Assembly (NCBI RefSeq): GCF_039654945.1
Contig: NW_027361741.1
Coordinates: 7,998,001-8,062,000, forward strand
Direction of reading: 5' to 3'
Length of the DNA stretch: 64,000 nucleotides
Origin: Dendrobates tinctorius
Lineage: Eukaryota
Shown piece by piece: positions 16,487 to 64,000 of the stretch (within the stretch, counting starts at the first letter, position 1; each line of letters opens with the position of its first letter). Both the position numbers and the translations under genes were made by a program. The notes beneath the pieces were generated by a model. The model ran no database searches. It saw nothing but the letters and a program-made list of their open reading frames with translations, and had not been told where the DNA came from.

Positions 16487-18967
16487 CAGTTGTGCTCAAA
16501 TTTTACATGTATCGGCAGAATTTTTGCTTTCTTGGCTTTTTCTCTGAGAATATGAATGATAATATCACCAAAATTTTTTCTCCACTCATGGATAGTGGTT
16601 GTGTGAAGCCATTTATTGTCAAACTACTGTGTGTTTTCTCTTTTTAAATCATAATGACAACCCAAACCATCCAAATGGCCCTGATCAAAAGTTTACATAC
16701 CACATTTCTTAATGCCGTGTATTGCCCCTCTAACATCAATGACAGCATGAAGTCTTTTGTGGTAGTTGTGGAAGAGGTCCTTTATTTTCTCAGGTAAAGC
16801 TGCTCACTCTTCTTGGCAAAAAGCCTCCAGTTCCTGTAAATTCCTGGGCTGTCTAGCATGAACTGCGTGATTGAGATCTTCCCAGAATGGATCAATGATA
16901 TTGTGGTCAGGAAACGGAGATGGCCACTCTAGAACCTTCACTTTGTTCTGCTGTAGCCAATAACAGGTCGACTTGGCATTGTGTTTTGGATCGTTGTTAT
17001 GTTGGAACGTCGAAGTACGTCCCATGCGCAGCTTCCGGGCTGATGATTACAAATTTGCTTCCAGTATTTGCTGACAACGTGTTGCATTCATCTTTCCTTC
17101 AACACAATTTTCCTGTGCTTTTGTAAATCACACATCCCCAAAACATCAGCAATCTACCTCCATGCTTTACAGTAGGAATGATGTTCCTTTCATCATAGGT
17201 CTTGTTGACTTCTCGCCAAATGTAACGTTTATGGTTTTGGCCAAAAAGTTAAGTTTTGATCTCATCACTCCAAATTACCTTGTTCCAGAAGTTTTGAGGC
17301 TTGTCTCAGTGCCGTTTTGCATATTGTAGGCGAGATACTTTGTGGCATTTGTGCAGTAATGGCTTTCTTCTGGCGACTCGAACATTCAGCCCATTTTTCT
17401 TCAAGTGCCTCCTTATTGGGCATCTTGAAACAGCCACACTGCTAGTTTTCAGACAGTACAGTATTTCAGCTGATGTTTTTTGTGTGTTTTTCTTTGCATC
17501 TCGAACAATTTTCTTGGCAGTTGTGGATGAAGTTTTTGTTGGTCTACCTGACCGTGGTTTTGTTTTTACAGAGCCCCTGATTTTCCATTTGCTAATCACA
17601 GTTTGAATGCTGCTGACTGGTATTATCAGTTCTTTGGATAGCTTTCTGTATCCCTTTCCTGTTTTATACAGTTAACTACCTTTTCACGTATATCCGTTGA
17701 CAAGTCTTTTGCTTTCCCCAAGACTCACAATCCAGAAATGTCAGTGGCTGGTGTTGTGAACTATCTCGATTTGACTTCTGGGTCAGGGCTCCCTCTGGTG
17801 GTTACTGTGGGTAGTGGAGCTGGCCAAAGTCTGCCACCTGACGACAAGGATTGGAGATCAGGGGTCACTGATTGGAGTATTTAAGTGAGCAGGCTTCCTC
17901 CTGTTCCCTGCTGGTGATTAGTTTTTTCCTGTGCATCCTGAGGTCTGATGTCTCCTGCCTGATCCTGCATTTTTCAGTTAAGTTGTTCATTTGCTAATCC
18001 TTTGCATCTGATCTGGTTTTGTCTCTTTCTGCTTGTGAGGGCTCAGCGTGCTCCCTGCTGGGGGCAGTGCAGGACCCCACTCCATATGTTACAGCTTGTG
18101 TCAGTTTGTTCAGTCCCCTGTTATATTAGTCTCTTTTGCTTTGCTGCCAGTTCATACCAGAATGCTGATATAGTGGGGGCGAGGTCATGAGACCTCAGTG
18201 TTTTTTTGTACATCAGATGTGTTGGATTTTTTAGGGTTTTTGCGTGATTGCATACAGTGTCTTTCCTTTCCTATCCTATCTAGTCAGTTTGGGCCCCATC
18301 ATTTTCCCAGTCTATTTTCTACCTGCGTTTGTGTCTCATCCTGTTTCACTGACAATATATGTTTGGGGGCTATCTATTCCTTTGGGGTTCTACTCCAGGG
18401 CAGTTTAGATTTCACCTTTCTTGCTTTAGGCTTAGTTAGCTCTCCGGCTGTGCATCTAGGGCATCGTAGGTACGCTCCACGGCTACTGTTAGTTGTGTTG
18501 TTAGGATTAGGGGTCTGCAATCCGCTAAGTTACCAACCTTTCTGGTTTCCTGGTGGCCTAGCCTATTCCTGCCATCCTCCTCGGTGATCAGTTCATAACA
18601 GGCTGGATGAAAGATGCAAGAGTATGTCTGGATCCCAGAGACTCACTCAGCTTTAATGCACACACACTGATTACAAGCAAACAGGTCACAGGTGAGGATG
18701 TTACCTTAAGTATCCATTCAAACCCATTTGTATCAACTTCTGTGCATGTTATTATCACCAGGGTATGTGAATTTTTGATCAGGGTCATTTGGATGTTTTG
18801 GGTTGTCATTATGATTTAAAAAGAGAAAACACAGTAGTTTGACAATAAATGGCTTCACCCATCCACTAACTATTAGTGTAGAAAAAGTTTTGGTGTTATC
18901 ATTCATATTCTCTGAAAAAAGGAAAGCAAAAATTCTGCCAGAGTATGTAAACGTTTGAGCACACCTG
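16487..18967 (-). mobile_element. Tc1 IR/DR transposon, full span, decayed, interrupted by a solo LTR
   Basis: ~210-bp TIRs CAGTTGTGCTCAAA...TTTGAGCACACCTG with TA flanks. Fragments KPRSGRPTK, RVARRKPLL and FQHNNDPKH...VLEWPS. Confidence 0.93.
17752..18600 (+). mobile_element. Solo LTR related to the chromovirus LTRs at 46-61 kb
   Basis: TGTTGTGAA...TTCATAACA termini. Shares GGGCAGTTTAGATTTC, CTAGGGCATCGTAGG and CCACGGCTACTG with those LTRs. GGCTGG flanks both sides. Confidence 0.9.
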
Positions 18968-24699: not shown

Positions 24700-27600
24700 C
24701 GTGCGCGACATCGTGAAGAAGACAGAAGAAAAAATCCCAAGTCAAGTCAAGCTCATCAAGGTACTCAACCCTCAGTGAGCAGTTCATAAGAGCACATGCC
24801 GAAGCAGAATCTAAGAAAGTGCAAGCCATTTTCACCCAAAAGAAAGCGGAGAGGGAAACAGAATCTGCATGCAAGAAAGCAGAGATGGAAGCTGAATCTG
24901 CACGCAAGAAGGTGGAAATAGAAACCCTGCAGAAGGAATACGAACATGCAGCAGCCATGGCAAAGCTAAGGGTCTTCGAGCAAGCTCTAGGTATAAGCCA
25001 AGGAGGCAGCCTCAATTTGTACGAACTCAACACGGAAGACCCACTTAAGCGCACAACAAAATACGTGTTGAGCCAAACCAACAAACCCCTGATCACCAAC
25101 AACATTCCCGTCAGCACCGACCTCTCTCCAGAGCATCAGGACATTGATCCGCCTGCAGCTCTCAGCTTTCAAGGTCAGTCCAATGTGCCACAAACATTCA
25201 AACCCGAACCTCCTTCATGCATCAGTACACGGCCTGACCCTACACCTCAGCAAATGCCATATGCCAATGCAACCTAACATGCCGGCAAGGCACTATGCTC
25301 CTGACAACTGTGTGGTTCCAGCCCGGCATACAACAGAGACCTTATACCACAAAAACGGTTTCTGGTCTAAACGCCTACGCCACTCCCTATCTTTCCATGT
25401 TTTTGAAACAAGAAGCTATGACCCATGTTAGCAGCATCACTCAGCCAGCAAATGTTTCTTCAAAGACAGAAAGAACAGACATGTCTGACTTTGCGAGGTA
25501 CATGATACGCTGAGAACTCACCAACACCGGTCTCACAAGGTTTGACGACCAGCCTGAGAATTACAGAGGTTAGAAATATGCTTTTAAAGCCACAATTAGT
25601 GACCTTGGCATCACTGCTGCTGAAGAGCTGGATCTGCTAATCAGGTGGCTTGGACCTCAATCCACAGAGCGGGTCAAGAGGCTCAGATCTGTCCACATCA
25701 GTAATCCAGCAGCTGGTCTCATGGTTGCATGGGAAAAACTAGAACGTAGTTTTGGCAGTCCTGAAGCCATAGAGAATGCATTGTTTAAGTGTCTACAGGA
25801 TTTCCCCAAAATATCCGGCAAGGACAGTTCAAAATTCCAAGAGCTCAGCGACCTGCTCCTAGAGCTCTAGTTAGCCAAGGCAGACATGCACCTACCTGTC
25901 CTCAGCTACCTGGATACCACTCAAGGCATTAACCCAAAAGTTTCTAAGCTGCAATACAATATACAAGTGAAGTGGACCGCTATTGGGTCAAAATACAAAA
26001 GAGCCAATCAAGCCGCTTTTCCTCCATTTTCCTACTTCTGTGAATTTATCAAGGATATTGCAGAGTTTAAGACCGACCCAAGCTTTTCCTATGTAGAACC
26101 AAGTGGACCTGGTCCAACCCCTCCTAAGTATGATGGCCCACGTTCTAACCTGAAAAGCCAAGGAGGCCCAGTGTCAGCGAAAAAGACCGACATCCTTCCC
26201 ACACCTATATCAACTCCAGACAAGAGCAACACAGGGGACAAGGTTGAAGGTCCTAATCATATGTGTCCCATTCATAAGAAGCCACATCCCCTAAAGAAGT
26301 GCATTGACATCAGAAAGAAGCTGCTCCAGGAGCGCAAGGAACTTCTAAAGACGTTTGGTGTATGTTACAGATGTTGTGCTTCTACTGAACACTTTGTTAA
26401 GGACTGTAAAATTCCTATTAAGTGTTTGGAGTGTGACAGTGAGGACCACGTGCAAGCACTCCATCCTAACCTACCTCTGCTTAGCTCACACCTTCCGTAC
26501 CCACCACAAGCTATGGCAGGGAGGAAACAGAACAAGCAAGTCCTACAAAGGTATCATCTTTATGCACAGAAGTTTGCGGAGAAGGCCTCTGGGACAAGTC
26601 ATGCTCAAAGATATGCCTGGTGAACGTATATCCCAAGGGTCAGCCCAAAAAGAGCACAAAGGTGTAAACCATCCTGGACGATCAAAGCAACTGATCAATC
26701 AAGGTCAGAGCTCTTTGATTTGTTTGATTTAAAAGGAAATGCTTACCCCTACACCTTGGGCAATTGCAGTGGTGTTACAGAGGTCTCTGGGAGAAAAGCC
26801 AATGGAATTATAGTATCTTCACTTGAGAACAACATAGAGATACCTCTGCCCACACTCGTCGAGTGTAACCAGATACTGTACCATCTAATAGAGAGGGGAT
26901 TCCAATGCCAGAGGCTGCTCTTCACCACTCTCATCTAATAACTATAGCCAACAAGATACCAGCACTTGACAACAGTTCAGATATCCTGATCCTGCTCGGT
27001 AGAGACATTCTCCGACTGCACAAGGTAAGTCAGCAGATCAATGAACTGCATGATGCTCCATTTGCTCAACGCTTTGATCTAGGCTGGGTTATCATAGGCA
27101 ACATCTGTATAGATAAAATGAAGAGGCCTACAAAGATTTACTCATGTAAGACTCATGTCTTGCCAAATGGTCACAGTACATACTGTCAACCATGCCCACA
27201 TCACTACTGGGCGAAAGAAACGCTGAGTGACTGTAAGCGGCTGCGCGAAACCTATGACAACATGAACATGTTCTTGTCCCGCAACGACAACCTCGGCTCA
27301 ACGGTTTTTGATTCTACAAATGAAGATAACAAGTTGTCACCAGTAAGAGAGGACAAAGAATTCATTAAGGTCATGGACAAGAAATCCACCCAGGATGACT
27401 CCAACAACTGGACAGCACCCTTACCCTTTTGTTATTCAAGGACAAGGTTGCCAAACAATCTGCAGCAAGCAACTGCAAGATTTTCATCTTTAAAACGCAC
27501 TTTAATGAAGAAACCAGAGATGGAAAAACATTCCATCGACTTCATGCAGAATATCATTGATAGAGATCATGTGGAGCCTGCTCCACAAGTAAAGGAAGGA

Positions 27601-29210
27601 GAAGAGTGCTGGTATCTTCCATCCTTTGGCGTCTACCATCCTCGCAAACCCAATCAAATCAGAGTGGTGTTTTACTCCAGTGCTCAGTATTAAGGTATCT
27701 CTTTCAATAACCTGCAACTCACCGGACCCAACCTGAACAACAGTCTCATAGGAGGACTGGTTCGCTTTAGACAAGAATCCGTTGCAGTAATGGCCGACAA
27801 TGTTTCACTGTTTCATTGTGAGGGAAGACAGTAGAAACTACTTCAGGTTACTATGGCACAAGGACAATGACATCCGCAATGAGGTGATAGATTATCAGAT
27901 GAAGGTACACGTCTTTGGCAACAGCCCCTCACCTGCTGTAGCAATCTATGGACCGAGACGGACAACCCAACAAGGAGAGAGTATGGATCGGATACCCGTC
28001 TATTTGTGGAAAGGAACTTCTATGTTAATGATGGACTTAAGTCTTTGCCCAGAAGTGAAGAAGCAATTGATCTGTTGTCCAGAACACAGGAAATTCTGTC
28101 TGAAGCAAACCTCAGACTGCACAAGATTATCTCCAACAATCAGGAGGTAATGAAAGCATTCCCATCCGAATACCAAGCTACAAGCCTGAAGGACCTTGAT
28201 CTGGGTTCCGATGTTCTTCCCACGCAATGTAGTCTTGGTCTGTTGTGGGACATTAAGCAGGACAAGTTCACATTCCAGGTATCTTCCCGCGATAAGCCTT
28301 TCACCAAACGAGAAGTCTTATCCGTGGTCAACAGCATTTACGATTCCCTTGGATTAATAGCACCCATCACTATCCAAGTCAAGATACTGCTGAGACAGTT
28401 AACCGCCAAGAACACAGATTGGGACACTCCGCTACTATCACAGAAACAACAAGGGTGGGAAATATGGAAGAAATCTTTAAAGATCTTAGAACATCTTCAA
28501 GTCCCACATTGTTATTCCTTAACGTCCCTTTCAACTGCCGTCCAAAAAGAGGTCCATATATTTCCTGATGCATCTACAGAGGCTATAGCTGGAGTGGCCT
28601 ATCTGAAAGCCTCAGAATCCAGCAACAGGGTACATTGTGGCTTCATCCTGGGTAAGGCAAAATTAACTCCGAAACCTGCACTTTCCATACCAAGGCTTGA
28701 ACTTTGCGCTGCCGTACTGGCAGTAGAAATTGCAGAAGTTATAAGGGATGAATTGGACATTGCTATTGACTCATTTATATTCTACACAGGCAGTAGAGTG
28801 GTGCTTGGTTACATACACAAACAAACAAAACAATTCTACGTCTGTGTCAGCAATAGGGTAGCATGAATCAGAGCATTTTCTACTCCTGAGCAGTGACATC
28901 ACATCCCCACTGATCTGAACCCGGCCGACAGAGGAACAAGACTTACCTAAATGACAACATGTGGCTGTCACCTCCACATTTCCTGTACAAAGACCCTTGT
29001 TCAAAGGACATCAGCAACACTTATGAGCTGGTAGAACCAGAATCTAACACTTCTGTGATACCAAAACCGAAGCTAAGGTCTCATTAGTTTGAACGCTTCT
29101 CAAGCTGGTCATCCGTCATGCGGGCTGTAGCTCATCATCTTCACATCGCCCATTGTTTTAGCAGCAACAAATCATCAGAGTGCCGTGGCTGGCACATGTG
29201 GTGGTTTATT
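24700..29210 (+). pseudogene. BEL/Pao gag-pol, fragmented
   Basis: ORF pieces 24819-25277, 25886-26623, 26905-27693, 27800-28150 and 28006-28866 carry BEL motifs. Confidence 0.9.
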
Positions 29211-30018: not shown

Positions 30019-31427
30019 GGTGCAAGCAGTCATATGACAAATAACAAGGATTTCTTCACTGACAATGAAAGCAAGTCAGAAAAGGTCATCTTACCTAATG
30101 GTCACTATATGACTTCAGAATTAGTAGACTGGTACCTCCGCTGTCCAGTTTCCTCAGCACAAAGCAGAAAGATCCCAATAAAGGATGTTCTCTATATTCC
30201 AGCCTTGAAAGCAATCTTCTGTCAGTAAAGAAGTTCAAGCAAAAAGGGAATGTATTTACTTTTAAAGATAACAGCTGCATCATCTCAAAGAAGGGTCACA
30301 GTCTTGCAGAAGGAAAAATCCAAGATGAACTTTATCAGCTAAAATGCAAAGAAAGAGTGTACAGTGCTAGACAAGATCTACATAAGAACTGTATCCATGT
30401 ATGGCACAGATGTCTTGGGCACAGAGACCCAGAAGCAGTAAGGAAGCTAGCTCAACTTGAAAATGGTATTGAAATCAACCAGTGTGGTCAAATCATGAAT
30501 TGCACTAGCTGTCTTAAAGGGAAAATGTCCAGAAAATCTTTCCTAAAATAAGCACCACTTGATCTGCACAGCCTCTGGGTCTGATACCTATAGATGTATG
30601 TGGTCCAATGAGTGTTCAAACTCCTAGCAAGAAGAGAATTTTTCACACATTTATAGATGACTACTCCAGATGTACAGTTGCCTACCTGCTTCAAAGTAAG
30701 GATGAAGTTCCACAGAAACTTGAAGAATATATTGCTGTAGTGTTTAACAAATTTGGAAGAATGCCAAAAACCCTGCGTGCAGATAATGAAACCAAATATA
30801 CAAGTGGTAAGGTGCAAACCATTTTGAAAAAGGATGGAATTGTGCTCCAGACTACCATTCCACACAACCCAGAACAAAGTGGCATTGCAGAGAGAAAGAA
30901 CCGTACTCTCTGTGAAAGTGGAAGAAGTATGTTGTTTGATGCGAATCTACCTACAACGTATTGGGGAGAAGCCATCATGACAGCTTGCTATCTTCCAAAG
31001 AGAGTGCCAGGTAAAGCCACAAATAAAACTCCATATGAGCTATGGAACTGCGAGAAGCTTAACCTGAAGCACCTCAAGATATTTGGAAGCAAAACGTTTA
31101 TGTATGTTCCCAAAGAAAAACGTTCGAAGTGGGAATCACATGCAAAGCAAGGAGTCCTGGTGGGCTTTAGCAAAACTCAAAAAGGATACAGAATCCTGCA
31201 CCCAGATACCAACATATTAGCAATTAGCAGAGATTTAGTGACTGATGAAAACTCTATTACTCAAATTCCATGAAGTTAAACCAGTTAGTCAACCTAAGAA
31301 GCAAGAACAAGAACCTCAATCACCAAACCCAGTTGCCGAAAAGGAAAACACTGAAGTGTGGATAAGCTCTAAAGCCACTAAGGAAGACATAGAAGAACCA
31401 AGTCAACCTCCAGTCAGGAGATCAGAA
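30019..31427 (+). pseudogene. copia protease C-terminus and integrase
   Basis: GASSHMTNN; WHRCLGH; ORF 30608-31273 is an rve-like core with an SH3-like GFSKTQKGYRI segment. Confidence 0.92.
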
Positions 31428-42836: not shown

Positions 42837-44529
42837 TAAATGTGTTTTTAGGGCACGCTTAAAACTGTGGGTATTGGGGATTAATCTAATTGTCCTGGGT
42901 AGTGCATTCCAAAGAATTGGTGCAGCACTCAAGAAGTCTTGGAGATAGTAGCAGGAAGTTCTTATTATTGAGGATATTGAGGAAGGAGCTATAGGATGGT
43001 GCTGAACTGTGGATCGCTTTGTGGGTGAGAGTGATAAGTTTATATTGAACTCTGGAGTGGGTGGTTAACAAGTGGCACAAGGTAGAGGCATCGGTGTAAC
43101 GGTTGGTGAGGAATATGATCCTGGCTGCAGCATTCAAGACAGATTGGAGAGGGGAGAGGTACAATAGAACAAATGACAATGAATAAGAGCTACAGTAAGT
43201 GTTTTTGCAGAGTCAAAAGTAAGAAATGGTCGAATTCTAGAAATGTTTTTGAGGTGTAGATGACAAGAGTGAGCAAGTGATTGGATTAGGGGGGTGAATG
43301 AAATATCTGAAACAAGTATGACCCCAAGACAGAAAGCATTCTGCTGGGCAGTAATGGTAGAACCACATATGGAAATGACAAGGTCGGGCATAGGTAGGTT
43401 AGTGGAGGGAGGAAACACCAGGAGTTCGTTTTTTGACGGGTTTATTTTCAGATAGAGCGAGGACATGATGTTGGAGACAGTGGTAAGACAATCATTGGTG
43501 TTTTGTAATAATGTAGGTGTGATGTCAGGAGTAGAGGTGTATAATTGGGTGTCATCAGCATAGAGATGGAACAGGAAACCAAATCTACTGATTGTTTGTC
43601 CAAAAGGGGCAGTATACAAGGAGAAGAGGAGAGGGCCTAGGACTGATCCTTGAGGAACCCCAACAGTAAGGGAGAAAGGAGAGGAGGAGGAGCCAACAAA
43701 TGATACAGTGAAGGAGCCATCAGAGAGGTGGGAGGAGAACCAGGAGAGAATGAAGTCCTTGAGGCCAATGGAGCGGAGCATAGTGAGGAGGAGCTGGTGA
43801 TCCACAGTGTAGAATGCTGCAGAGAGATCCAGGAGAATCAGCAAGGAGTAGCGACCATTAGATTTAGCTGTTAGTAGATCATTAGAGACTTTAGTCAGGG
43901 CAGTTTCAGTAAAGAGAAGAAAATGGATTGTAGATGGTCAAGAAGAGAGTGATCTGAGAGATAGCAGATTAGACAGGAGTGATCTAAGAGTTCCAGGAGT
44001 TTAGACATGAAGGGAAGATTAGAAAAAGGTCTATAGTTAGCAACACAGTTTTGGTTGAGGGATGGTTTTTTAAGTAATGGATGTATGCTGGCATGTTTAA
44101 ATGAGGAGGGAAAGATACCGGAAGAGAGAGAGAGGTTAAATATTTTTTTTAGTGAGTGGTGACAACAGGGGAAAGGGAGTGGAGATGTGAGGGAATAGAG
44201 TCACTTGTGCAAGTAGTAGAGTGAGAAGATGCAAGGAGCCTGATCACTTCTTCCGTGACTGGCCCAAAGAGAGAGAGTAAGCTAGATGTAGTGTGGGAGG
44301 GAGGACAGTGCATGGTATGAGGGGATTGGGAGAAAATTTCCTGTCGGATATGGTCAATATTTTCTTTGAAATAATTGGCCAGGTCGTCAGCGCTGAGATC
44401 CGTAGTTGGGGCCTGCACTCTTGGATTGAGGAGGGAATGAAAAGCGTCAAAGAGACGTTTAGGACTGTTGAATAGTGAGGTGATGAGGGTGCTGAAGTAT
44501 GTTTGCTTGGAGAGCTGAAGAGCAGAGCT

Positions 44530-46090: not shown

Positions 46091-46496
46091 TTAAAACATA
46101 ACTTTTAATCCGTTAATTAAAAGAACTACTAAAGTGTGCTACCCAAATGTGAATAAAACGCATAAAAAATGCCAATCTAATGGGTGGACCCTAAGAACAA
46201 AGGAAACCACCTAGATGCCTTATAAGGATATAGATTTTCACCTGGTAATCTATTGCATAGGTGAACAAAATATCTGAAAGGTATAGCAATGAATAACAAT
46301 TCAACACATAGATGCCATAGCCTAATTGCACATATATAAGATACAAAGTGCCAAAAAGGTCTTTCTTGACCACATAAATAGGCAATCAGGTGAGATATTA
46401 ATAAAAAAGGAACAATCTCACCAAATAAGATGATGGGTCGTGAGTCTCCAAAGATCCTCTGTACAGTCAATGGAAAGAAAGAAGGGAAGACAATAC

Positions 46497-49400
46497 TGTT
46501 ATGAGTTCATTTTCCCCTTCACCATTGAGGTCTGATGAACTCCCTCTTCTGGTGAAGGAAGGTAGTGAGGCTGATTACCAAGCACCTGAGCTGGGAGAGG
46601 ATGACTGGGCGACGGGGATCTCTGACTGGATATAAAGCAGCCGACGCCCTTCCTCCTCGCTGGTGATTCCTCTGTGGAATTCTTCCCTGCTGGTTCTCTG
46701 TGGAATTCTAGGAGACCAGTTTGATTCCTGCTCCTCAAAAGCTAAGTTTTCTGCTTTGCCTTTTTGCATTTGTGTTTTGGTTTTAGTTTGCCTTGCTTTT
46801 CTGGATTCTGCCATTCCCTGCTGGGGTGAGCTGAATTCCTTTTTTGCCGGTTGCTCTGTCTTCAGAAAATACCTGAGTACTGACATAGTCTTTTTGAAGC
46901 CTAGCGACTTCAGGGCCTTTTTCCCTGTAAGTCTTTTGGTTCTTATTTTCATAGGGTTTTTCGCGGATTGTAGACAGCAGCTTTCCTATCCTGTCCTGTC
47001 TAATTAGCTTGGGCCCCATCATTTGCTCAGTCTATCTTTCTATCTGTGTTAGTGTTTTTTCTTCTTGCTTCACCGTCATTATATGTTGGGGGCTGCCTAT
47101 TGCTTTGGGGTCTGCTCTGGGGCAGTTTAGATTTCCCTTTCTGTCTTTAGACTAGGCAGTTCTCCGGCTGTGATCGAGGGGTCTAGGGCATCGTAGGAAC
47201 CCCCCACGGCTACTGCTAGTTGTTGTTGATAGGTTCAGTGGTCTGCAATCCGATAGCTGCCAACTTCTCTGGTTTTCTGGACTTAGCTAGCATTTCTGTT
47301 TTTGCCTCCTACGGTGACTCATTCATAACAGAATCACCAGCCATACCGCAGATCCTAGGGTACTCAATAGCAGGAAAGAATTAAAAAAAAAGTGTGTATA
47401 TTTTTTCCTCTATATCTCTGAGGCCGTAGGGGGAATTTTTTTTTCTCTCAATGGAGATAAAGCTATTGTCTGATCTTGTGGAGCAGCTCGCTGTGGAAGT
47501 GCGGGGAATTTCCACCTACCTTGCTCATTCACATGCTGCTGAACCAAAGATCCCTACTCCTGATGTGTTTTTTGGGGATCGTTCTAAATTTTTGAATTTC
47601 AAAAATAATTGTAAATTATTTTTTGCCTTGAGGCCCAACTCGTCAGGGAGCTCTGCGCAGCAGGTTAAAATTGTCATCTCTTTGCTGCGTGACGATCCCC
47701 AGGATTGGGCGTTTTCTTTGAAACCTGATGATCCTAGTCTGACTAATGTGAACGCATTTTTTCAAGCCTTGGGGTTGTTGTATGACGATCTTAATGCTAT
47801 TGATCAGGCTGAAAAGACCCTGTTGGCATTGAGCCAGGGTCGAGATTCTGCAGAATTGTACTGTCAAAAATTCGGAAAGTGGGCGGTCCTTACTGCCTGG
47901 AATGATAATGCCTTGGCAGCTCTCTTTCAGAAGGGTTTGTCAGAGGCCGTAAAAGATACTATGGTGGGATTTCCTGTTCCCTCTGGTCTGGATGATTCTA
48001 TGTCATTAGCCATTCAGGTTGATCGGCGTTTACTTGAACGCAGGACTGCACGAGAGGTGTTGCCACCTGTTGAACAAGTGTCTGAACCTATGCAATGTGA
48101 TAGAGTTTTGTCCAGGGAGCAACGTCAGGAGTTCAGAAAGCGTAATAAGCTGTGTTTTTTTTTGTGGAGATGCCTCGCATATTATTTCTGTCTGTCCTAA
48201 ATGAGAGAAACGTTTTGCACACATGTTTTCTGTGGGTGGTGTTCAACCTAAGTTTCTTCTGGCAATTACTCTGATCTGCTCCCTGTCCACATTTTCCACC
48301 AAGGCTTTTGTGGATTCGGGAGCAACCCTGAACCTAATGGACTTGGATTTTGCTAAACGTTGTGGATTTCCTATGACACCTCTGCGGACGCCTATCCCTT
48401 TGAGGAGGATTGATGCTACACCTTTGGCGAAAAATAAACCTCAGTTTTGGACCCAGGTGGTAATGCGGGTCGCCCCAAACCATCAAGAAAATTGCAGATT
48501 TTTGGTGCTGCATAATTTGCATGATACCATTGTTCTGGGGTTTCCCTGGTTGCAAATTCATAATCCAGTTTTGGACTGGAAATCTGTGTCTGTTGTGAGT
48601 TGGGGTTGTCGGTGTGCCCTTAGTGAGGCTCCGTTTTTTTCCACCTCTCCTCAGTCGCATGATGTTCCTGACTATTTGGTGGACTTTTATGATGTATTTA
48701 GTGAGAATGAGTCTGCATCTTTGCCTCTTCATAGGAGTTATGACTGTGCAATTGAACTGAGCCCGGGGTGTAAATTTCCCAAGGGTCGGCTCTTCAATTT
48801 ATCTGTACCCGAGCACGAGGCTATGCGATCCTATATTAAGGAGGCGTTGGAGAAGGGTCATATTAGACCATCCTCTTCACCATTAGGTGCTGGTTTTTTT
48901 TTCGTGGCCAAAAAGGATGGTTCATTAAGGCCTTGTACTGATTATCGTGCCCTCAACAAAATTACTATTAAATATCAGTATCCGTTACCCCTGATTTCGG
49001 ATCTATTCTCCAGAGTTAAAGGTGCTTGCTGGTTTACCAAGCTTGACCATAGGGGGGCGTATAATCTTATCCGCATTAAGCATGGGATGAATGGAAGACG
49101 GCGTTTAATACTCCAGAGGGACATTTTGAGTACCTGGTGATGCCTTTTGGGCTCACTAATGCCCCTTCTGTCTTCCAGTGCTTCATGAACTACATTTTCT
49201 GAGACTTTGTGGATACATTTTTGATTATCTATCTGGATGATATTTTGATCTTCTCCAAGGATTGGGATTCTCATGTGGAACATGTTCGGACGGTGTTCCG
49301 GATCTTGAGGGAGAATTCCCTGTATGTCAAAGGATCGAAATGCCTTTTTGGGGTACATAGGATTTCATTTTTGGGATTTATTTTGTCTCCGTCAACTATT

Positions 49401-52339
49401 GAAATGGATCCGGCCAAGGTACAGGCCATTTATGATTGGGTTCAGCCCACTTCTTTGAAGGCCCTTCAGAAGTTTTTGGGTTTTGCTAATTTTTATCGGA
49501 AATTTATAGCAAAATTTTCTAGTATTGCCAAGCCATTGACTGATCTGACTAAGAAGGGTGCTGATGTGTTGAATTGGTCTCCGGAGGCTGTTTCTTCCTT
49601 TCAGGAGCTGAAGCGAAGATTCACTTCTGCCCCGGTTTTGCGGCAACCTGATGTCTCACTCCCGTTCCAGGTAGAGGTGGATGCTTCTGAGATTGGTGCA
49701 GGAGCTGTTTTGTCCCAAAAGGATCCTGTAACATCTAAAATGAATCCCTGTGATTTCTTTTCCCGAAAGTTCTCCCCATCTGAACGTAACTATGATGTGG
49801 GGAATCGGGAACTGTTGGCCATGAAATGGGCATTTGAGGAGTGGAGACATTGGTTGGAGGGAGCTAAACATCAAGTCGTGGTCCTCACTGACCACAAGAA
49901 TTTGATTTACCTGGAGTTGGACAAACGCTTGAACCCTAGACAGGCTAGATGGGCCTTGTTTTTTACACGTTTTGATTTTGTGGTCTCTTTTCTTCCTGGC
50001 ACTAAGAATGTCAAGGCTGATGCTCTTTCTAGGAGCTTCTTTGCTGATTCTCCTGTGGTGACCAAGCCTGCTACCATCTTAGGCAAAGGGGTAGTTCTTT
50101 CTGCCATCTCGCCCGATTTGAGACATGCTCTGGAAGAGTTCCAGGAGGACAAACCTGAGCGTTGTCCCAGTGGAAAGTTGTATGTTCCTGACCAGTGGAA
50201 GAAGAGAGTGATGTCTGAAGTTCATTGCTCTGCTTTGGCTGGTCATCCAGGTATTTTTGGTACTAGAGATCTGGTGAGTCGGTCTTTTTGGTGGCCCGCC
50301 TTGTCTCGTGATGTCAGGAATTTTGTGCAGTCCTGTGGGACTTGCTCCCGGTCTAAACCTTGTTCTCGCTCTAGTGGGTTGCTGATGCCTTTGCCGGTCC
50401 CCAGGAGGCCATGGACCCATATTTCAATGGATTTCATCTCTGATATGCCTGTCTCTCAGGGAATGACTGTTATTTGGGTGATTTGTGATAGGTTATCTAA
50501 GATGGTTCATCTTGTACCACTCCCTAAGTTGCCATCTTCTTCTGAGTTCGTGCCCCTGTTTTTGCAACAGGTGGTTCGCTTGCACGGGATTCCTGAGAAC
50601 ATTGTATCTGACAGAGGAGTTCAGTTTGTGTCTAGATTTTGGAGGACGTTCTGTTCCAAGCTGGGAATTCAGTTGTCCTTCTCCTCTGCGTTTCACCCTC
50701 AGACCAATGGGCAGACGGAGAGAACAAACCAGACCTTGGAGTCGTATTTGAGATGTTTTATTTCCGCTGATCAGGATGATTGGGTTTCATTTTTGTCCTT
50801 GGCCGAATTTGCTTTAAATAATAGAGCTAGTTCTGCCACTTTGATGTCACCTTTTTTTTGTAACTTTGGGTTTCATCCTCGATTTTCTTCAGGGCAGGTG
50901 GAGCCTTCTGCCTGCCCAGGTGTTGACACTGTGGTGGAGAGAATGCACCAGATCTGGGACCAAATGGTGGATAAGTTATCTCTCTCCCAGGAAAAGGCCC
51001 AGCGGTTTTCCAACCGACATAGGACCGTTGGTCCCCAGTTTAAGGTGGGTGATATGGTTTGGTTATCATCAAAAAATATCGCTATGAAGGTAGCTTCTCC
51101 TAAGTTTAAGCCTAGATTTATTGGGCCTTACAAGATTTTGGAGATCATTAATCCAGTCTCTTTTCGGTTGGCTCTTCCTGTCACATTTAAAATCCATAAT
51201 GTGTTTCATAAGTCCTTCTTTAAGAGGTTTGTTGAACCAGTAGTTGCTGGGGTGGCACCTCCGGACCCTGTATTGGTTGAAGGTAACATGGAATATGAGG
51301 TAGAGAAGATACTGGATTCCCGTCTGGCTAGACGGAGACTCCACTATTTGGTTAAGTGGAAGGGTTATGGTCAGGAGGATAATTCCTGGGTCTCTGCCTC
51401 TGATATTCATGCCAAAAGATTGGTGCGTGCCTTTCATCGGGCTCACCCTGATCGCCCTGGTGGCGTGGATGAGGGTTCGGTGACCCCTCCTCAAGGGGGA
51501 GGTACTGTTATGAGTTCATTTTCCCCTTCACCATTGAGGTCTGATGAACTCCCTCTTCTGGTGAAGGAAGGTAGTGAGGCTGATTACCAAGCACCTGAGC
51601 TGGGAGAGGATGACTGGGCGACGGGGATCTCTGACTGGATATATGGCAGCCGACGCCCTTCCTCCTCGCTGGTGATTTCTCTGTGGAATTCTTCCCTGCT
51701 GGTTCTCTGTGGAATTCTAGGAGACCAGTCTGATTCCTGCTCCTCAAAAGCTAAGTTTTCTGCTTTGCCTTTTTGCATTTGTGTTTTGGTTTTAGTTTGC
51801 CTTGCTTTTCTGGATTCTGCCATTCCCTGCTGGGGTGAGCTGAATTCTTTTTTTGCCGGTTGCTCTGTCTTCAGAAAATACCTGAGTACTGATATAGTCT
51901 TTTTGAAGCCTAGCGTCTTCAGGGCCTTTTTCCCTGTCAGTCTTTTGGCTCTCATTTTCATAGGGTTTTTCGCGGCTTGCAGACAGCAGCTTTCCTATCC
52001 TGTCCTGTTTAGTTAGCTTGGGCCCCATCATTTGCTCAGTCTATCTTTCTATCTGTGTTAGTGTTTTTTCTTCTTGCTTCACCGTCATTATATGTTGGGG
52101 ACTGCCTATTGCTTTGGGGTCTGCTCTGGGGCAGTTTAGATTTCCCTTTCTGTCTTTAGACTAGGCAGTTCTACGGCTGTGATCGAGGGGTCTAGGGCAT
52201 CGTAGGAACCCCCCACGGCTACTGCTAGTTGTTGTTGATAGGTTCAGTGGTCTGCAATCCGATAGCTGCCAACTTCTCTGGTTTTCTGGACTTAACTAGC
52301 ATTTCTGTTTTTGCCTCCTACGGTGACTCATTCATAACA
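46497..52339 (+). mobile_element. Ty3/Gypsy chromovirus (sushi/Tf1 group), full length, copy A
   Basis: 834-bp LTRs 46497-47330 and 51506-52339 (TG..CA). TSD CAATAC. PPT AAGGGGGAGG. Domain order gag-PR-RT-RH-IN-chromodomain. Confidence 0.98.
47451..51644 (+). pseudogene. gag-pol polyprotein of copy A (two frameshifts, one stop)
   Basis: PEG10/RTL-like capsid, CCHC knuckle, VDSGA, YLDD, VDAS..RELLA..TDHKN, integrase (MDF, SDRGVQF, ERTNQ), GPY/F module and chromodomain EYEVEKILDSR..YLVKWKGY. Lesions near 48158, 48201 and 49083. Confidence 0.95.
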
Positions 52340-52353
52340 CAATACCCTGTCAA

Positions 52354-52734
52354 TAAAAAAAGAGAAATTAATCCAGCTCACCGCACTGCCTTGCTGGTAG
52401 GATCCAGATCCTGCGCACGGATTTGACTAGACAGTCAATCAATAATAGGAAAGAAAAAAGAAGTTCCAGTGCCAGGAATGGAAAATTAAAAATCCATTTT
52501 ATTGTGCCATTGCATATTAAAATTCCAGCAGGTGCAGCATATCTGTCGGATGACTACAGAACAATGCGTTTCGACGCCTCAGGTCTTAATCATGATTAAG
52601 ACCTGAGGCGTCGAAACGCGTTGTTCTGTAGTCATCCGACAGATATGCTGTACCTGCTGGAATTTTAATATGCAATGGCACAATAAAATGGATTTTTAAT
52701 TTTCCATTCCTGGCGCTGGAACTTCTTTTTTCTT
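52354..52734. mobile_element. Minimal Penelope-type insertion: 142-bp-arm palindrome centred on a hammerhead-like motif
   Basis: 52451-52592 is the reverse complement of 52593-52734 with no spacer. Motif ATGATTAA-GAC..GTC-GAAACGCGTT. Flanking direct repeat CACAATACCCTGTCAA. Confidence 0.75.
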
Positions 52735-53109
52735 CACAATACCCTGTCAAATCCCTGAGGGGCTAGCCATCATCTAATCCCCAAACTCCCGCCCTAACAA
52801 GGGCAGTCCACAGCTCACCCTAATTGCACATGCCCTGCCCTTTCCCTAAGGGGGTGTCCCAACGCGTTTCATCCAAGTAAAATCTTTAGGGGACTTAACT
52901 TGTAAAGTGCCATAGTGCTATAACTAAAAAGAGATAAATCCTACCACTCTCAATGCTGTCTGCCGACCTTTTATAGGTGTATACATGTAGATAATTAGTT
53001 AACGTAATAAAGTTAATAGAGTACATGATATTCATAGTGTAAATAAAAGTTCTTAATCGTGATTATTTATAAAGTGCAGTATAGTGTATACAGTGCAGTG
53101 TGGATACAT

Positions 53110-55017: not shown

Positions 55018-58000
55018 TGTTATGATTGAGTCACCGTAGGAGGCAAAAATAGAAATGCAAGCTAAGTCCAGAAAACCAGAGAAGTTGGCAGCTATCGGAT
55101 TGCAGACCCCTGAACCTATCAACACAACTAGCAGTAGCCGTGGGGGGCTCCTACGATGCCCTAGGCCCCTCGATCACAGCCGGAGGACTACATAGCCTAA
55201 AGACAGAAAGGGAAATCTAAACTGCCCCAGAGCAGACCCCCAAAGCAAAAGGCAGCCCCCCACATATAATGACGGTGAAGCAAGAAGAAAGAACAAAACA
55301 CAGACAGAAAGATAGACTGAGCAAAGATGGGGCCCACGCTAGCTTAGATAGGTAAGGACAGGAAGGCTGCTGTCTGCAATCCGTGAAAAAACCCTATGAA
55401 AATAAGAGCCAACAAACTGACAGTAAAAAAGGCCCTGAAGATGCTAGGCTTCAAAAAAGCTATGTCAGTACTCAGGAATATTCTGAAGACAGAGCAACAG
55501 GCAAAAGGAGATTCAGCTCACCCCAGCAGGGAATGGCAGAATCCAGAAAAGCAAGGAAAACAAAACACTAATGCAAAAAGGCAAAGCAGAAATCTTAGCT
55601 TTAGATGAGCAGGAATTATGAGCAGCCTTATATCCAGTCATTAACTCCAATCAGCCAGTCATCATCATCAGCCCCAGGTGTTTGACAATCAGGCTCACTA
55701 CCTTTCTTCACCAGAAGAGGGAGTTCCTCGGGCCTCAGTAGTGAAGGAGAAAATGAACTCACAACAGTACCTCCCCCTTGAGGAGGGGTCACCGAACCCT
55801 CAACCACGCCACCAGGGCGATCAGGGTGAGCCCGATGAAAGGCACGCACCAATCTTTTGGCATGAATATCAGAGGCAGAGACCCAGGAATTATCCTCCTG
55901 ACCATAACCCTTCCACTTAACCAAATACTGGAGTCTCCGTCTAGCCAGACGGGAATCCAGTACTTTCTCTACCTCATATTCCATGTTACCTTCAACCAAT
56001 ACAGGGTCTGGAGGTACAGCCCCCGGAACAACAGGTTAAACAAACCTCTTCAACAAAGATTTATGGAACACATTATGAATTTTAAATGTGACAGGAAGAG
56101 CCAAACGAAAAGAGACCGGATTAATAATTTCCATAATCTTGTAAGGTCCAATAAATCTAGGCTTAAACTTAGGAGAAGCCACCTTCATAGCAATATTTTT
56201 TGATGATAACCACACCATATCACCAACCTTAAATTGGGGACCAATGGTCCTATGTCGGTTGGAAAACCGCTGGGCCTTTTCCTGGGAGAGAGATAACTTA
56301 TCCACCACTTGGTCCCAGATCTGGTGCATTCTCTCCACCACAGTGTCAACCCCTGGGCAGGCAGAGGGCTCCACCTGCCCTGAAGAAAATCGAGGATGAA
56401 ACCCAAAGTTACAAAAAAAAGGAGACATCAAAGTGGCAGAACTAGCTCTATTATTTAAAGCAAATTCGGCCAAGGGCAAAAATGAAACCCAATCATCCTG
56501 ATCAGCAGAAATAAAACATCTCAAATATGACTCCAAGGTCTGGTTTGTTCTCTCTGTCTGCCCATTGATCTGAGGGTGAAAAGCAGAGGAGAAGGACAAC
56601 TGAATTCACAGCTTGGAACAGAAAGTTCTCCAAAATCTAGACACAAACTGGACTCCTCTGTCAGATACAATGTTCTCAGGAATCCCGTGCAAGCGAACCA
56701 CCTGTTGTAAAAACAGGGGCACCAATTCAGAGGAAGACGGCAACTTAGGGAGTGGTACAAGATGAACCATCTTAGAGAACCTATCACAAATCACCCAAAT
56801 AACAGTCATCCTTTGAGAGACAGGCATATCAGAGATGAAATCCATTGAAATATGGGTCCATGGCCTCTTGGGGACAGGCAAAGGCATCAACAACCCACTA
56901 GAGCGAGAACACGATTTAGACCGGGAGCACGTCCCACAGGACTGCACAAAATTCCTGACATCACGAGACAAGGAGGGCCACCAAAAAGACCGACTCACCA
57001 GATCTCTAGTACCAAAAATACCTGGATGACCAGCCAAAGCAGAGCAATGAACTTCAGACATCACTCTCTTCTTCCACTGGTCAGGAACATACAACTTTCC
57101 ACTGGGACAACGCTCAGGTTTGTCCTCCTGGAACTCTTCCAGAGCACGTCTCAAATCGGGCGAGATGGCAGAAAGAACTACCCCTTCGCCTAAGATGGTA
57201 GCAGGCTTGGTCACCACAGGAGAATCAGCAAAGAAGCTCCTAGTGAGGGCGTCAGCCTTGACATTCTTAGTTCCAGGAAGAAAAGAAACCACAAAATCAA
57301 AACGTGTAAAAAACAAGGCCCACCTAGCCTGTCTAGGGTTCAAGCGCTTAGCCGACTCTAGGTAAATCAAATTCTTGTGGTCAGTGAGGACCACGACTTC
57401 ATGCTTAGCTCCCTCCAAACAATGTCTCCACTCCTCAAATGCCCATTTCATGGCTAACAGTTCCCGATTCCCCACATCACAGTTACGTTCAGATGGAGAG
57501 AACTTTCGGGAAAAGAAAGCACAGGGATTCATTTTAGATGTTACAGGATCCTTTTGGGACAAAACAGCTCCTGCACCAATCTCAGAAGCATCCACCTCTA
57601 CCTGGAATGGAAGTGAGACATCAGGTTGCCGCAAAACCGGGGCGGAGGTGAATCTTCGCTTCAGCTCCTGAAAGGAAGAAACAGCCTCCGGAGACCAATT
57701 TAACACATCAGCACCCTTCTTAGTCAAATCAGTCAATGGCTTGGCAATACTAGAAAATTTTGCTATAAATTTCCGATAAAAATTAGCAAAACCCAAAAAC
57801 TTCTGGAGGGCCTTCAAAGAAGTGGGCTGAACCCAATCGTAAATGGCCTGTACCTTGGCCGGGTCCATTTCAATAGTTGACGGGGACAAAATAAATCCCA
57901 AAAAAGAAATCCTCTGTACTCCAAAAAGGCATTTAGATCCTTGACATACAGGGAATTCTCCCTCAAGATCCGGAACACAGTCCGAATATGTTCCACATGA

Positions 58001-60727
58001 GAATCCCAATCCTTGGAGAAGATCAAAATATCATCCAGATAGATAATCAAAAATTTATCGACAAAATCTCGGAAAATATCGTTCATGAAGCACTGGAAGA
58101 CAGAAGGGTCATTATTGAGCCCAAAAGGCATCACCAGGTACTCAAAATGTCCCTCCGGAGTATTAAACGCCGTCTTCCATTCATCCCCATGCTTAATGCG
58201 AATAAGATTATACGCCCCCCTATGGTCAAGCTTGGTAAACCAGCAAGCACCTTTAACTCTGGAGAATAGATCAGAAATCAGGGGTAACGGATACTGATAT
58301 TTAACAGTAATTTTGTTGAGAGCACGATAATCAATACAAGGTCTTAATGATCCATCCTTTTTGGCTACAAAAAAAACCCGGCACCTAAGGGTGACGAGGA
58401 TGGTCTAATATGACCCTTCTCCAACGCCTCCTTAATATAGGATCGCATAGCTTCGTGCTCGGGTACAGATAAATTGAAGAGCCGACCCTTGGGAAATTTA
58501 CACCCCGGGCTCAGTTCAATAGCACAGTCATAACTCCTATGAGGAGGCAGAGACGCAGACTCATTCTCACTAAATACATCATAAAAGTCCGCCAAATAAT
58601 CAGGAACATCATGCGACTGAGGAGAGGTGGAAAACACCGGAGCCTCACTAAAGGCACACCGACAACCCCAACTCACCACAGACACAGATTTCCAATCCAA
58701 AACTGGATTATGAATTTGTAACCAGGGAAACCCCAGAACAATAGTATCATGCAGATTATGTAACACCAAAAACCTGCAATTTTCTTGATGGTCTGGGGCG
58801 ACACGCATTACCACCTGGGTCCAAAACTGAGGTTTATTTTTAGCCAAAGGAGTAGCATCAATCCCCCTCAAAGGGATAGGCGTCTGCAGAGGTGTCATTG
58901 GAAACCCACAACGTTTAGCAAAATCCAAGTCCATTAGGTTTAGAGCTGCTCCCGAATCCACAAAAGCCTTGGCGGAAAATGTGGACAGGGAGCAGATCAG
59001 AGTAATAGCCTGAAGAAACTTAGGTTGAACACAACCAACAGAAAACGTGTGTGCAAAGCGTTTCTCGCGTTTAGGACAGACAGAAATAATATGCGAGGCA
59101 TCTCCACAGAAAAAACACAACTTATTACGCCTTCTGAACTCCTGACGCTGCTCTCTGGAAAAAACTCTATCACATTGCATAGGTTCAGACATCTGTTCAA
59201 CAGGTGGCAACACCTCTCGTGCAGCTCTGCGTTCGCGTAAACGCCGATCAACCTGAATGGCTAAAGACATAGAATCGTCAAGACCAGAGGGAACAGGAAA
59301 TCCCACCATAGTATCTTTTATGGCTTCTGACAACCCCTTCCGAAAGAGAGCAGCCAAGGCATTATCATTCCAGGTAGTAAGTACTGCCCACTTTCGGAAT
59401 TTTTGACAGTACAATTCTGCAGAATCACGACCCTGGTTCAATGCCAGCAGGGTCTTTTCAGCCTGATCAATGGCATTAGGTTCGTCATACAACAACCCCA
59501 AGGCCTGAAAAAATGCGTTCACATTAGTCAGAATAGGATCATCTGGTTTCAAAGATCGCCACGCAGCAAAGAGATGACAATTTTAACCTGCTGCGCGGAG
59601 CTCCCTGACGAGTTAGGCTTCAAGGCAAAAAATAATTTACAATTATTTTTGAAATTCAAAAATTTAGACCGATCCCCAAAAAATACATCAGGTGTAGGAA
59701 TCTTTGGTTCAGCAGCATGTGAATGAGCAAGGTAGGTGGAAATTCCCCGCACTTCCGCAGCGAGCTGCTCCACACGATCAGACAATTGCTTTATCTCCAT
59801 TGAGAGAAAAAAAAATTCCCCCTACGGCCTCAGAGATATAGAGGAAAAAATATACACACTTTTTTTTTTTTAATACAATTCTTTCCTGCTATTGAGTACC
59901 CTAGAATCTGCGGTATGGCGGGTGATTCTGTTATGATTGAGTCACCGTAGGAGGCAAAAATAGAAATGCAAGCTAAGTCCAGAAAACCAGAGAAGTTGGC
60001 AGCTATCGGATTGCAGACCCCTGAACCTATCAACACAACTAGCAGTAGCCGTGGGGGGCTCCTACGATGCCCTAGGCCCCTCGATCACAGCCGGAGGACT
60101 ACATAGCCTAAAGACAGAAAGGGAAATCTAAACTGCCCCAGAGCAGAACCCAAAGCAAAAGGCAGCCCCCCACATAAAATGACGGTGAAGCAAGAAGAAA
60201 GAACAAAACACAGACAGAAAGATAGACTGAGCAAAGCTGGGGCCCACGCTAGCTTAGATAAGAGAGGACAGGAAGGCTGCTGTCTGCAATCCGTGAAAAA
60301 ACCCTATGAAAATAAGAGCCAACAAACTGACAGTAAAAAAGGCCCTGAAGACGCTTGGCTTCAAAAAAGCTATGTCAGTACTCAGGAATATTTTGAAGAC
60401 AGAGCAACAGGCAAAAGGAGATTCAGCTCACCCCAGCAGGGAATGGCAGAATCCAGAAAAGCAAGGAAAACAAAACACTAATGCAAAAAGGCAAAGCAGA
60501 AATCTTAGCTTTAGATGAGCAGGAATCAGACTGGTTTCCTAGAAGTCCACAGAGAACTCACCCGAAGGCCAGAAGGGCGTCGGCAGCCTTATATCCAGTC
60601 ATTAACTCCACTCAGCCAGTCATCATCATCATCCCCAGGTGTTTGACAATCAGGCTCACTACCTTTCTTCACCAGAAGAGGGAGTTCCTCGGGCCTCAGT
60701 AGTGAAGGGGAAAATGAACTCACAACA
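55018..60727 (-). mobile_element. Ty3/Gypsy chromovirus, full length, copy B
   Basis: 5' LTR 60727-59929; 3' LTR 55766-55018 (~50-bp deletion). TSD CAGCTC. Same protein domains as copy A. Confidence 0.98.
55628..59800 (-). pseudogene. gag-pol polyprotein of copy B (several lesions)
   Basis: ORF pieces 59800-59549, 59552-58365, 58134-57814, 58009-56606, 56599-56036 and 55999-55628 are collinear with copy A. Confidence 0.95.
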
Positions 60728-61560: not shown

Positions 61561-61833
61561 TGTCTTCACCATGGTTTTTTAACCTGAATCCTGCTTTTGG
61601 TTTTTTAATGAAGATTTCTCAATAAAGATTCTATTTTTAAGTAAGAAGATGTGCTGGAATATTTGGATCTTTGCATTTATGTCAGCTTGTGACATTTCCT
61701 AGCACCTTCATCAAAGAACTGCCTCCAACGTGACAAGTAAAAAAGGTGAGCTGAATATATTCGTTTTTTGGACTTTGCAAGCTTTTTTTTGTGCTCCCTT
61801 TTAAGAGAACTGTGTTTTCTATTATAATATAAC

Positions 61834-62694
61834 ATGGATACTAATGTTGGGGCAGAGTCAACTTTTACTATTACTAATGAGGAACCAGATGATTTTTTCA
61901 CTGTGAACAATGCAACCAGACTCAGCAAAATGACTGCACTTTTCAATAAGGAAATTCTCATCCCAGATGATACCTCTAACCTTAAGAACAATATGAGGGA
62001 GTTGGAAAAATATATGGTCGTACGCCTTAAACTTTGGTGGGATAGCCATACTCTCCAACAATTTCTAGAAAGGAACATGATTCCAAGGGGTCTGCGTCTT
62101 AGGAAAAGACCTACACAGAACCTGGATGATTCTTTTCTTGAACAATGGGATTCTATCTTGAGTCAATGCTCAAATAGACTTATGGAATTGATTGTAAAAT
62201 ATGAAACCAAGAAAATGCAGTCACTTGAAAAGTCTATTAAAGAACTGGAGATATCAATACAAGATCATAAAGATACGGAGAATTATCGCATTTTAAAAAA
62301 GAACATCAATGAGAATTTGGGTAAACTTGAGGATTCAATTGCTCAGTTGAAATAGAAAAAATTTAAAAGGGATATTCGTGATTATGAAAATAATAAAATT
62401 TATAACTGGCATAAGAATAAAAGAGAAAAAAGAAATAAATCACCAAAACCGATTCTTAAATCGACTCATACAACTGTGCCGGCTGAACGGCGTGTGAGCT
62501 TCAGTTCTATAGAACCAATCTTCTCTGAAGGATTTTCTGACACCTCAGAGTCAGAAAGGGAGGTAGAAGTGGTTTCTATTAACAATCAATCTTCAAAAAA
62601 CGGACTGCCACAAAGAAGTCCAAAAGAACCAGACGGGCAGGACGCAAACATAAGAAAATGTACTCACGGATATCCGACTCGGAAAAACAAATAA
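61834..62694 (+). pseudogene. Penelope-like ORF1 (~286 codons, one internal TAG at 62353)
   Basis: LWWD..L..FL....IPRGLR motif, a predicted coiled coil, then K*KKFKRD..DY and a basic/Ser-acidic tail, all in one frame. Confidence 0.7.
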
Positions 62695-64000
62695 ATAACT
62701 GTTCACAAGAACATACTGTTTTGAATCTCTCGGCTACCATTCTGCTGGAGTCTGATATAAGACTTTTAAAAAAAGGACTGAATTTTGTGCCTAAAAAGGA
62801 CTTTGACCTTTTGCATACCATGATGGATATTAACAAATTTGTCCGTAAGATCACTGTTAAAAAACATTATTATAATGAAGAAAGTCTTAACAAGTCTCCT
62901 AGCTGTAATTGGACTAAGTTTTTTTCTAATGATTTGCTTACTTTTCCTGAACAGATTAGTGTCATGAATTTGGAGTCATGTATAGAAAATGAGCTTAAGG
63001 TGGACGAAAAAATTTTTTGTACTAGAGTTCCTAACCCTCAGTTCTATCCTACACAATCAAGGACCCCCAGTATGGATGATTTCCAGTATTTGGTTGAGTC
63101 TGAACTTCTCAATCTAGTTTTAATCTCTCTAAAGCTGAACAAGACTCATTGAAAAAACTACAGGTTAATCCTAATATCAATATTAAAAATTCTGATAAAG
63201 GGGTTTCTGTGGTTGTGTTGGATAGGGGTTTATATGAACGAGAGATTTACATGATGCTGGAAGATACTAACATCTATATGCATTTGAATCATGATCCTAC
63301 AGAACGAATTAGGGGCTTTTTAAAGTCCTTATTATCAGAAGGTGTTTTTTTGGGGATTATTAATCAAAAGCAGTGTGATTTTTTTTCAGCCTGATTATAT
63401 ACAAACACCATTGTTTCATGCATTTCCTAAAACACATAAGTCCATTTTTCCACCCCCACTACGTCCAATAGTGTCGGGTATTAACTCGTTGACTGAGCAT
63501 CTTGGCGAGTGGTTGGATGACAGGTTAAAACCAATTTCGTACCGATCACCTAGTTATATCAGGGACTCCAAGCATGTTTTGAATCTGGTACATAATCTTG
63601 AATGGTCTGAGAATTATCAATGGCTGACATGTGACATTGCATCCCTATATTCCTCAATTCCTCACAGTTTGGCTCTTATGGCTTTAAGAGACCAACTTGA
63701 GAAATATTCTTGCTATACCCCAGATCACCAGGATTTTATCATCAGTGTTACAAATTTTCTTTTGAAAAATAATTATTTTATGTTTCTTAAGAAATTTTAT
63801 TTACAGATTCAAGGTTGTGCAATGGGGGCCAAATTTAGCCCCTACCTGGCTATTATTTTTATGAATTGGTTTGAACAACAGTATATATATAGTGATTTAA
63901 ATCCTTTTTTGGATAGCATCTATATTTATACACGTTATATTGATGATGTCCTGGTGATCTGGAGGGGTGACAAAATTGAAATTAGTGCATTTATTGCATA
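62583..64000 (+). pseudogene. Penelope-like ORF2 (reverse transcriptase), frameshifted near 63150 and 63390
   Basis: The -1 frame is open from 62583. PLE RT motifs continue through YIDD at ~63936-63947. Confidence 0.85.

Follow-up and report, generated by a model that had tools for sequence, protein, structure and literature searches.

Paired changes in the primer-binding site and the LTR of a poison-frog chromovirus family point to self-primed reverse transcription

How does a Ty3/gypsy chromovirus start reverse transcription if its primer-binding site (PBS) lacks the TGG of a tRNA-type site? The question is raised by an element at positions 46497-52339 (copy A) of the window, that is, the whole stretch of 64,000 nucleotides of Dendrobates tinctorius DNA analysed here, for which a sequence-only reading had proposed priming by the element's own RNA, with a compensatory change between copy A and a second copy, B, as natural evidence. 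Taking genomic copies of the family and of its relatives into account, we consider it very probable that this chromovirus primes reverse transcription with approximately the first nine nucleotides of its own RNA and without a tRNA.

Copy A, copy B and the extent of the duplex

Copy A, on the plus strand, is flanked by two exact copies of the 6-bp target site duplication CAATAC (46491-46496 and 52340-52345) and carries two 834-bp LTRs with TG...CA ends, the 5' LTR at 46497-47330 and the 3' LTR at 51506-52339, which are direct repeats with 17 mismatches in 834 positions. The region 47430-51500 codes for gag, protease, reverse transcriptase, RNase H, integrase, an SH3 domain (SH3_Tf2-1) and a chromodomain, the latter located at the integrase C-terminus (PF00385, E 2.7e-14), and is interrupted between its three open frames (47430-48200, 48205-49140 and 49203 onwards). 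A polypurine tract followed by AC (51489-51505) precedes the 3' LTR, so that the LTR ends, the polypurine tract and the pol order protease, reverse transcriptase, RNase H and integrase are those of a Ty3/gypsy chromovirus, and the domain set, including SH3_Tf2-1 and the chromodomain, bears out the class assigned to the element beforehand. The closest proteins, with the same domain set, are poison-frog gypsy polyproteins with up to 79% identity, while Xenopus or fish proteins reach 47-50%; Gag of copy A found no match among solved structures. Beside copy A lies a 284-bp palindrome with 98% identical arms (52451-52592 and 52593-52734) within a stretch, 52340-52750, that is flanked by 14-bp direct repeats (52340 and 52737), and we take this palindrome to resemble the inverted end of a Penelope-like element.

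The 5' LTR contains a TATA-like box, a putative promoter element, at 46631-46636, which reads TATAAA in copy A and TATAAG in most relatives. The sequence GCTGGTGATTC (46659-46669) begins 28 nt after the start of TATAAA, as had been stated for copy A, and this spacing is kept in 71 of 74 family copies. Directly after the LTR-terminal CA (47330), the PBS GAATCACCAGC (47331-47341) forms 11 of 11 Watson-Crick pairs with 46659-46669, a match that occurs in none of 200 dinucleotide shuffles of the copy A 5' LTR. It holds no TGG, in agreement with the original proposal, and no tRNA-type PBS starting with TGG is found among the first few bases behind the LTR.

Although the 11-nt complementarity is real in the 5' LTR of copy A, it does not hold as a rule for the family. 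The 3' LTR of copy A reads GCTGGTGATTT at 51668, with T at +11 (and TATATG in place of the TATA-like box), and T is also found in all 27 readable closest relatives, none of which has C at +11; the eleventh Watson-Crick pair is thus peculiar to the 5' LTR of copy A within its subfamily. Over 74 copies, positions +1 to +9 are Watson-Crick paired in 66-74, +10 in 62 and +11 in 19 (with G-U in another 51), and -1 in 8; here the search pattern prescribed the base that follows the PBS, and the last figure therefore shows only that -1 is mostly unpaired. Eleven copies have C at +10, in eight of them in both LTRs, and all eleven retain A at PBS position 2; copying into the PBS thus leaves out +10, and the primer does not exceed 9 nt. 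A primer of 11 nt as a family rule was rejected on these grounds, as neither +10 nor +11 covaries with the PBS, and a primer of about 9 nt is more likely than the Tf1-like 11 nt assumed beforehand. The pairing has sharp edges: its nine positions form a conserved 9-bp duplex between the predicted self-primer GCTGGTGAT (R +1 to +9, 46659-46667), extended to 46669 in the copy A 5' LTR only, and the PBS core ATCACCAGC (47333-47341), which lies behind a 2-nt spacer (GA, 47331-47332) that does not covary with +10 and +11.

Copy B (55018-60727) lies on the minus strand, is flanked on both sides by the 6-bp duplication GAGCTG and has a coding region that is likewise broken. Its PBS GAATCACCCGC (59918-59928) had been read correctly, and the change from A to C in the PBS, matched by T to G in the LTR, is real. 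The bulged G which had been placed in the LTR site at 60564-60554 was ruled out: in register, the site in the 5' LTR (59929-60727, with TATAAG at 60593) reads TCGGGTGAGTT at 60565-60555, and since GCGGGTGATTT is present in 23 of 29 B-like relatives and T at +1 and G at +9 are absent from all 29, copy B carries two private substitutions at these positions. It pairs at only 7 of 9 core positions, worse than its relatives, and the primer site of its 3' LTR (55018-55766) is deleted; copy B is a decayed example of the primer/PBS pairing.

The window holds further members of this clade and remnants of other elements. An older plus-strand LTR encloses copy B (54646 to about 61230) with its own primer site at 54884, and a solo LTR of a related subgroup (17752-18600), flanked by the 6-bp duplication GGCTGG, has its primer site at 17910 and PBS-bearing relatives with the A-type PBS. 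Other broken mobile elements at 25871-28866, 30099-31273, 43134-43937 and 61828-63152 contain a Pao peptidase, an integrase with a retroviral SH3 domain, a reverse transcriptase fragment and two frames without a Pfam match.

Covariation of PBS and LTR across the family

The sequence-only reading had suggested examining covariation in collected family copies, and the genome offers ample material, with at least 18,496 LTR-PBS junctions matching an exact pattern that leaves the PBS open. A sample in contig order comprised 80 of the first 100 junction rows, leaving aside twelve neighbours in tandem or in clusters and also the last eight rows, and the LTR site was readable in 74 copies. PBS base 9 and LTR position +3 are A and T in 41 and C and G in 31 of these, with 0 of 72 discordant, while the remaining two copies have G or T in the PBS and G in the LTR. 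In comparison with 1,487 other variable columns of LTR and gag, only +3 allows an error-free prediction of PBS base 9, while the next best columns make 3 errors. Covariation on the family sample is therefore solid where copies A and B alone are weak evidence, and with many copies and the sister clades behind it the original argument is supported in substance, even though the A/B swap itself may be one event and B is decayed.

That reservation deserves attention, as parsimony requires three changes for the A/B swap on the LTR tree and five on the internal tree, both poorly resolved, and the AU test does not reject a tree that unites all C:G copies (p 0.098). Since a single origin is compatible with the data, the swap may represent a single evolutionary event, which is what would be expected if the match had been inherited as a duplication and the difference between A and B were a functionless mark of two subfamilies. 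The three copies at which the next best columns fail have G in the LTR and C in the PBS; they agree with the A type at 17-18 of 18 other diagnostic columns and resemble the B type at the paired bases alone. Moreover, linked sites closer to the PBS track PBS base 9 less well than the partner 650 nt away, and at least eight further paired substitutions in one sister clade and two in another (see below) largely refute the inherited-duplication reading, which we regard as scarcely credible.

The subfamily that holds both states comprises 8,344 LTRs, of which 40 were fetched, 20 with a PBS. Within identical flanks, the LTR and PBS bases were G:C in 12, T:A in six, G:T in one and G:A in one, several of these copies being likely segmental duplicates; 1 of 19 (L450) was discordant. 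Rare PBS variants amount to 42 and 120 genome-wide, and compensation was seen in 1 of 35 readable G variants and 0 of 30 fetched position-3 variants. The uncompensated variants are as expected of post-insertion damage and lend no support to the pairing, and the single compensated one is put down to chance. A third allele lineage with C in the LTR and G in the PBS (L243/L280) was considered and rejected, as C at +3 is present in 25 of 8,344 LTRs and five other PBS-bearing copies are unmatched.

The close agreement of each PBS with its own 5' LTR also bears on the question whether the element's own sequence acts in cis or in trans, the primer in the latter case being a short capped transcript of a solo LTR or a second packaged RNA instead of the folded-back RNA end. 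The same site is present in solo LTRs (17910, 54884), the long-range cis duplex is not favoured in half of the folded copies, and sequence data cannot separate the two modes; on the other hand, both PBS types are abundant and discordance is nevertheless limited to 0 of 72 and 1 of 19 copies, which fits cis fold-back better. Priming in trans is accordingly rated as improbable next to fold-back of the element's own 5' end. In four copies (L154, L187, L149 and L280) the two LTRs differ at +3, the PBS matching the 5' LTR in 4 of 4, and in L154 and L187 the 3' LTR has the other common allele; such differences could have arisen by strand transfer from one cDNA to another, by conversion or simply by mutation.

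Sister chromovirus clades of the same genome

Other chromoviruses of the genome have a different PBS and mostly share 41-50% identity with copy A over their best stretch in tblastn. Two such clades were sampled with search patterns that fixed part of each PBS: clade X with 1,956 junctions, represented by 50 loci (the 30 first rows and 20 picked for distinct PBS), and clade Y with 2,730 junctions, represented by 30 loci. A 10/10 complement of the PBS was found in the element's own upstream DNA in 38 of 50 clade X loci versus 14 of 2,224 when PBS types were swapped, the other 12 loci showing no perfect match, and in clade Y a perfect complement was present in 22 of 30 loci versus 48 of 660 swaps. 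Clade X has 12 distinct PBS cores and at least eight paired substitutions, 24 by parsimony on the gag tree, and clade Y three cores and at least two paired substitutions. A TATA-like motif lies 30-31 nt upstream of the site in 33 of 38 clade X loci and at a spacing of 30 nt in 21 of 22 clade Y loci. The two spacer positions of clade X pair in only 2 of 38 and 1 of 38 loci, corresponding to the unpaired 2-nt spacer of the copy A family, whereas in clade Y +11 pairs in 22 of 22 and +12 forms G-U; -1 is paired in 0 of 38 and 0 of 22 loci, respectively. Together with the two cores of the copy A/B family, one genome thus harbours 17 PBS cores, and the 15 others, each with its own 10-nt complement in the LTR, are stronger evidence for the pairing than the A/B swap.

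Covariation is proof of pairing and not of priming, and the helix might thus have a structural role in packaging, dimerisation or translation control, with a host RNA, e.g. a tRNA fragment, acting as primer. The helix, however, coincides precisely with the position of the PBS, 2 nt past the LTR end, in three clades, and its LTR partner keeps a fixed distance from the TATA-like box. As for a host primer, the comparison with host tRNAs covered tRNA-Lys(TTT) only, where the seven distinct sequences from 30 of 63 matched loci had no more than 4 nt in common with the primer; against it stand the missing TGG and the 17 PBS cores, each of which would require its own host RNA. We therefore give this reading little chance compared with self-priming.

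The clades differ in the structure of the LTR start. Elements of clades X and Y (L300-L379) have a strong hairpin reaching from the TATA-like box to the first 5-6 primer bases, with z < -2 in 27 of 38 X and 13 of 22 Y loci, and a U3/R-border hairpin with z < -2 was found in 0 of 73 copies of the window's family. From these predicted folds, the hairpin in X and Y might mask the 3' primer copy where U3 meets R. A further chromovirus, L137 (also L133, with a partial LTR), has its PBS complement just 15 nt into the LTR, with no room for an upstream TATA box within the LTR. Target duplications were recovered for 45 of 80 copies of the window's family in which both ends were found (34 of 6 bp, five of 5 bp, six none) and for 13 elements of other chromovirus families (ten of 5 bp, zero of 6 bp, three none).

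A model of priming and its relation to known self-priming elements

In the self-priming model, transcription would start at or near 46659, as suggested by the spacing from the TATA-like box, and the RNA 5' end would fold back onto the PBS. RNase H would then, by analogy with Tf1, cut after approximately +9 and free a 3' OH, from which minus-strand synthesis would copy the 2-nt spacer, U5 and R. The primer would subsequently be copied during plus-strand synthesis, giving a new PBS strand templated by the LTR start. Through this step a mutation of the LTR start could pass into the PBS, and templating, in addition to selection, would then be expected to make the two sites covary. The two spacer bases would be trimmed by the integrase, mirrored by the 2 nt after the polypurine tract, which are AC in copy A and clade X and AA in clade Y.

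Folding of the leader agrees with this arrangement in part of the copies. In whole-leader folds the primer-PBS duplex has a mean pair probability of 0.12 in copy A, and in 20 copies it reaches at least 0.67 in nine, 0.40 in one and at most 0.09 in ten. A predicted duplex between U5 (47238-47246) and the leader (47348-47356), with one mismatch in copy A, ranks first among U5/leader pairings in at least 40 of 73 copies of the family, and in a related subgroup G-U changes on one side keep it intact. A possible second short helix between 46671-46675 (TCTGT) and the LTR end plus spacer (47328-47332) is part of the minimum-energy fold in 5 of 20 copies and shows no covariation. Of the three-duplex 'pretzel' around the PBS, components are thus found in part only, namely the U5-leader duplex and the short second helix.

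Covariation at the level of copies turns a single complementarity into evidence from natural mutagenesis and allows exact predictions, i.e. a transcript start at +1, a primer end at or before +9 and 2-nt extensions of the cDNA. In addition, PBS finders that rely on tRNA matches will overlook the more than 18,000 junctions that this family has in the genome. In the passages concerned, the literature treats self-priming in vertebrates as 'implicated' or 'described', experimental proof coming from fission yeast.

Self-priming is presented as a common feature of Tf1/sushi elements in the relevant part of bioRxiv 10.1101/2022.12.06.519325, is 'implicated' from fungi to vertebrates in that of PMC4600332 and described for yeast and vertebrate members in that of PMC6317226, where it is also predicted from PBS-LTR complementarity in plant Tcn1 chromoviruses and TAR copia elements, i.e. 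in other hosts and lineages than those of the copy A family, and where the supplements list predicted self-primers. The priming scheme of Tf1/Tf2 is given in a section of PMC5341516, and the mechanism is mentioned in passages of PMC2864245, PMC3601003 and PMC5006619. A covariation analysis across genomic copies was not found in the literature searched, although Butler et al. 2001 may compare differing primers, and the literature searches gave no mention of 6-bp target duplications in chromoviruses.

Tf1/Tf2 of Schizosaccharomyces pombe, Tj1 and Tosmo1-3 are, like the copy A family, chromodomain Ty3/gypsy elements with a PBS complementary to their own RNA 5' end. The vertebrate Tf1/sushi group (sushi-ichi of pufferfish; Butler et al., 2001) is likewise described as self-priming, and copy A may belong there, with SH3_Tf2-1 among its domains and chromodomain gypsy proteins of frog and fish as best hits. 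The flanking duplexes of the Tf1-type 'pretzel', as outlined in portions of PMC4600332, PMC5341516 and bioRxiv 10.1101/2022.12.06.519325, are partly present in the copy A family, and its 6-bp target duplications differ from the 5 bp reported for Tosmo1 and Tosmo2. Self-priming is experimental in yeast and deduced from sequence in the copy A family. The self-primer of Tf1 has 11 nt, whereas the duplex of the copy A family has 9 bp behind a 2-nt spacer.

The copy A family is thus very probably a further case of the self-priming already attributed to the Tf1/sushi group and not a new mechanism; it is a well-supported member with a corrected primer length and an unusually rich natural covariation. 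One might go further, read the thousands of natural copies as a map of the vertebrate self-primer obtained with no bench work, and see in the copy A family a distinct vertebrate variant of the self-priming system, with a self-primer of 9 nt here and 10 nt in the sister clades, a retrovirus-like end trimmed by 2 nt unlike that of Tf1, a PBS copied anew in each cycle and thus drifting freely (17 cores) and a 6-bp integrase, a view that we offer tentatively and hold to be rather doubtful.
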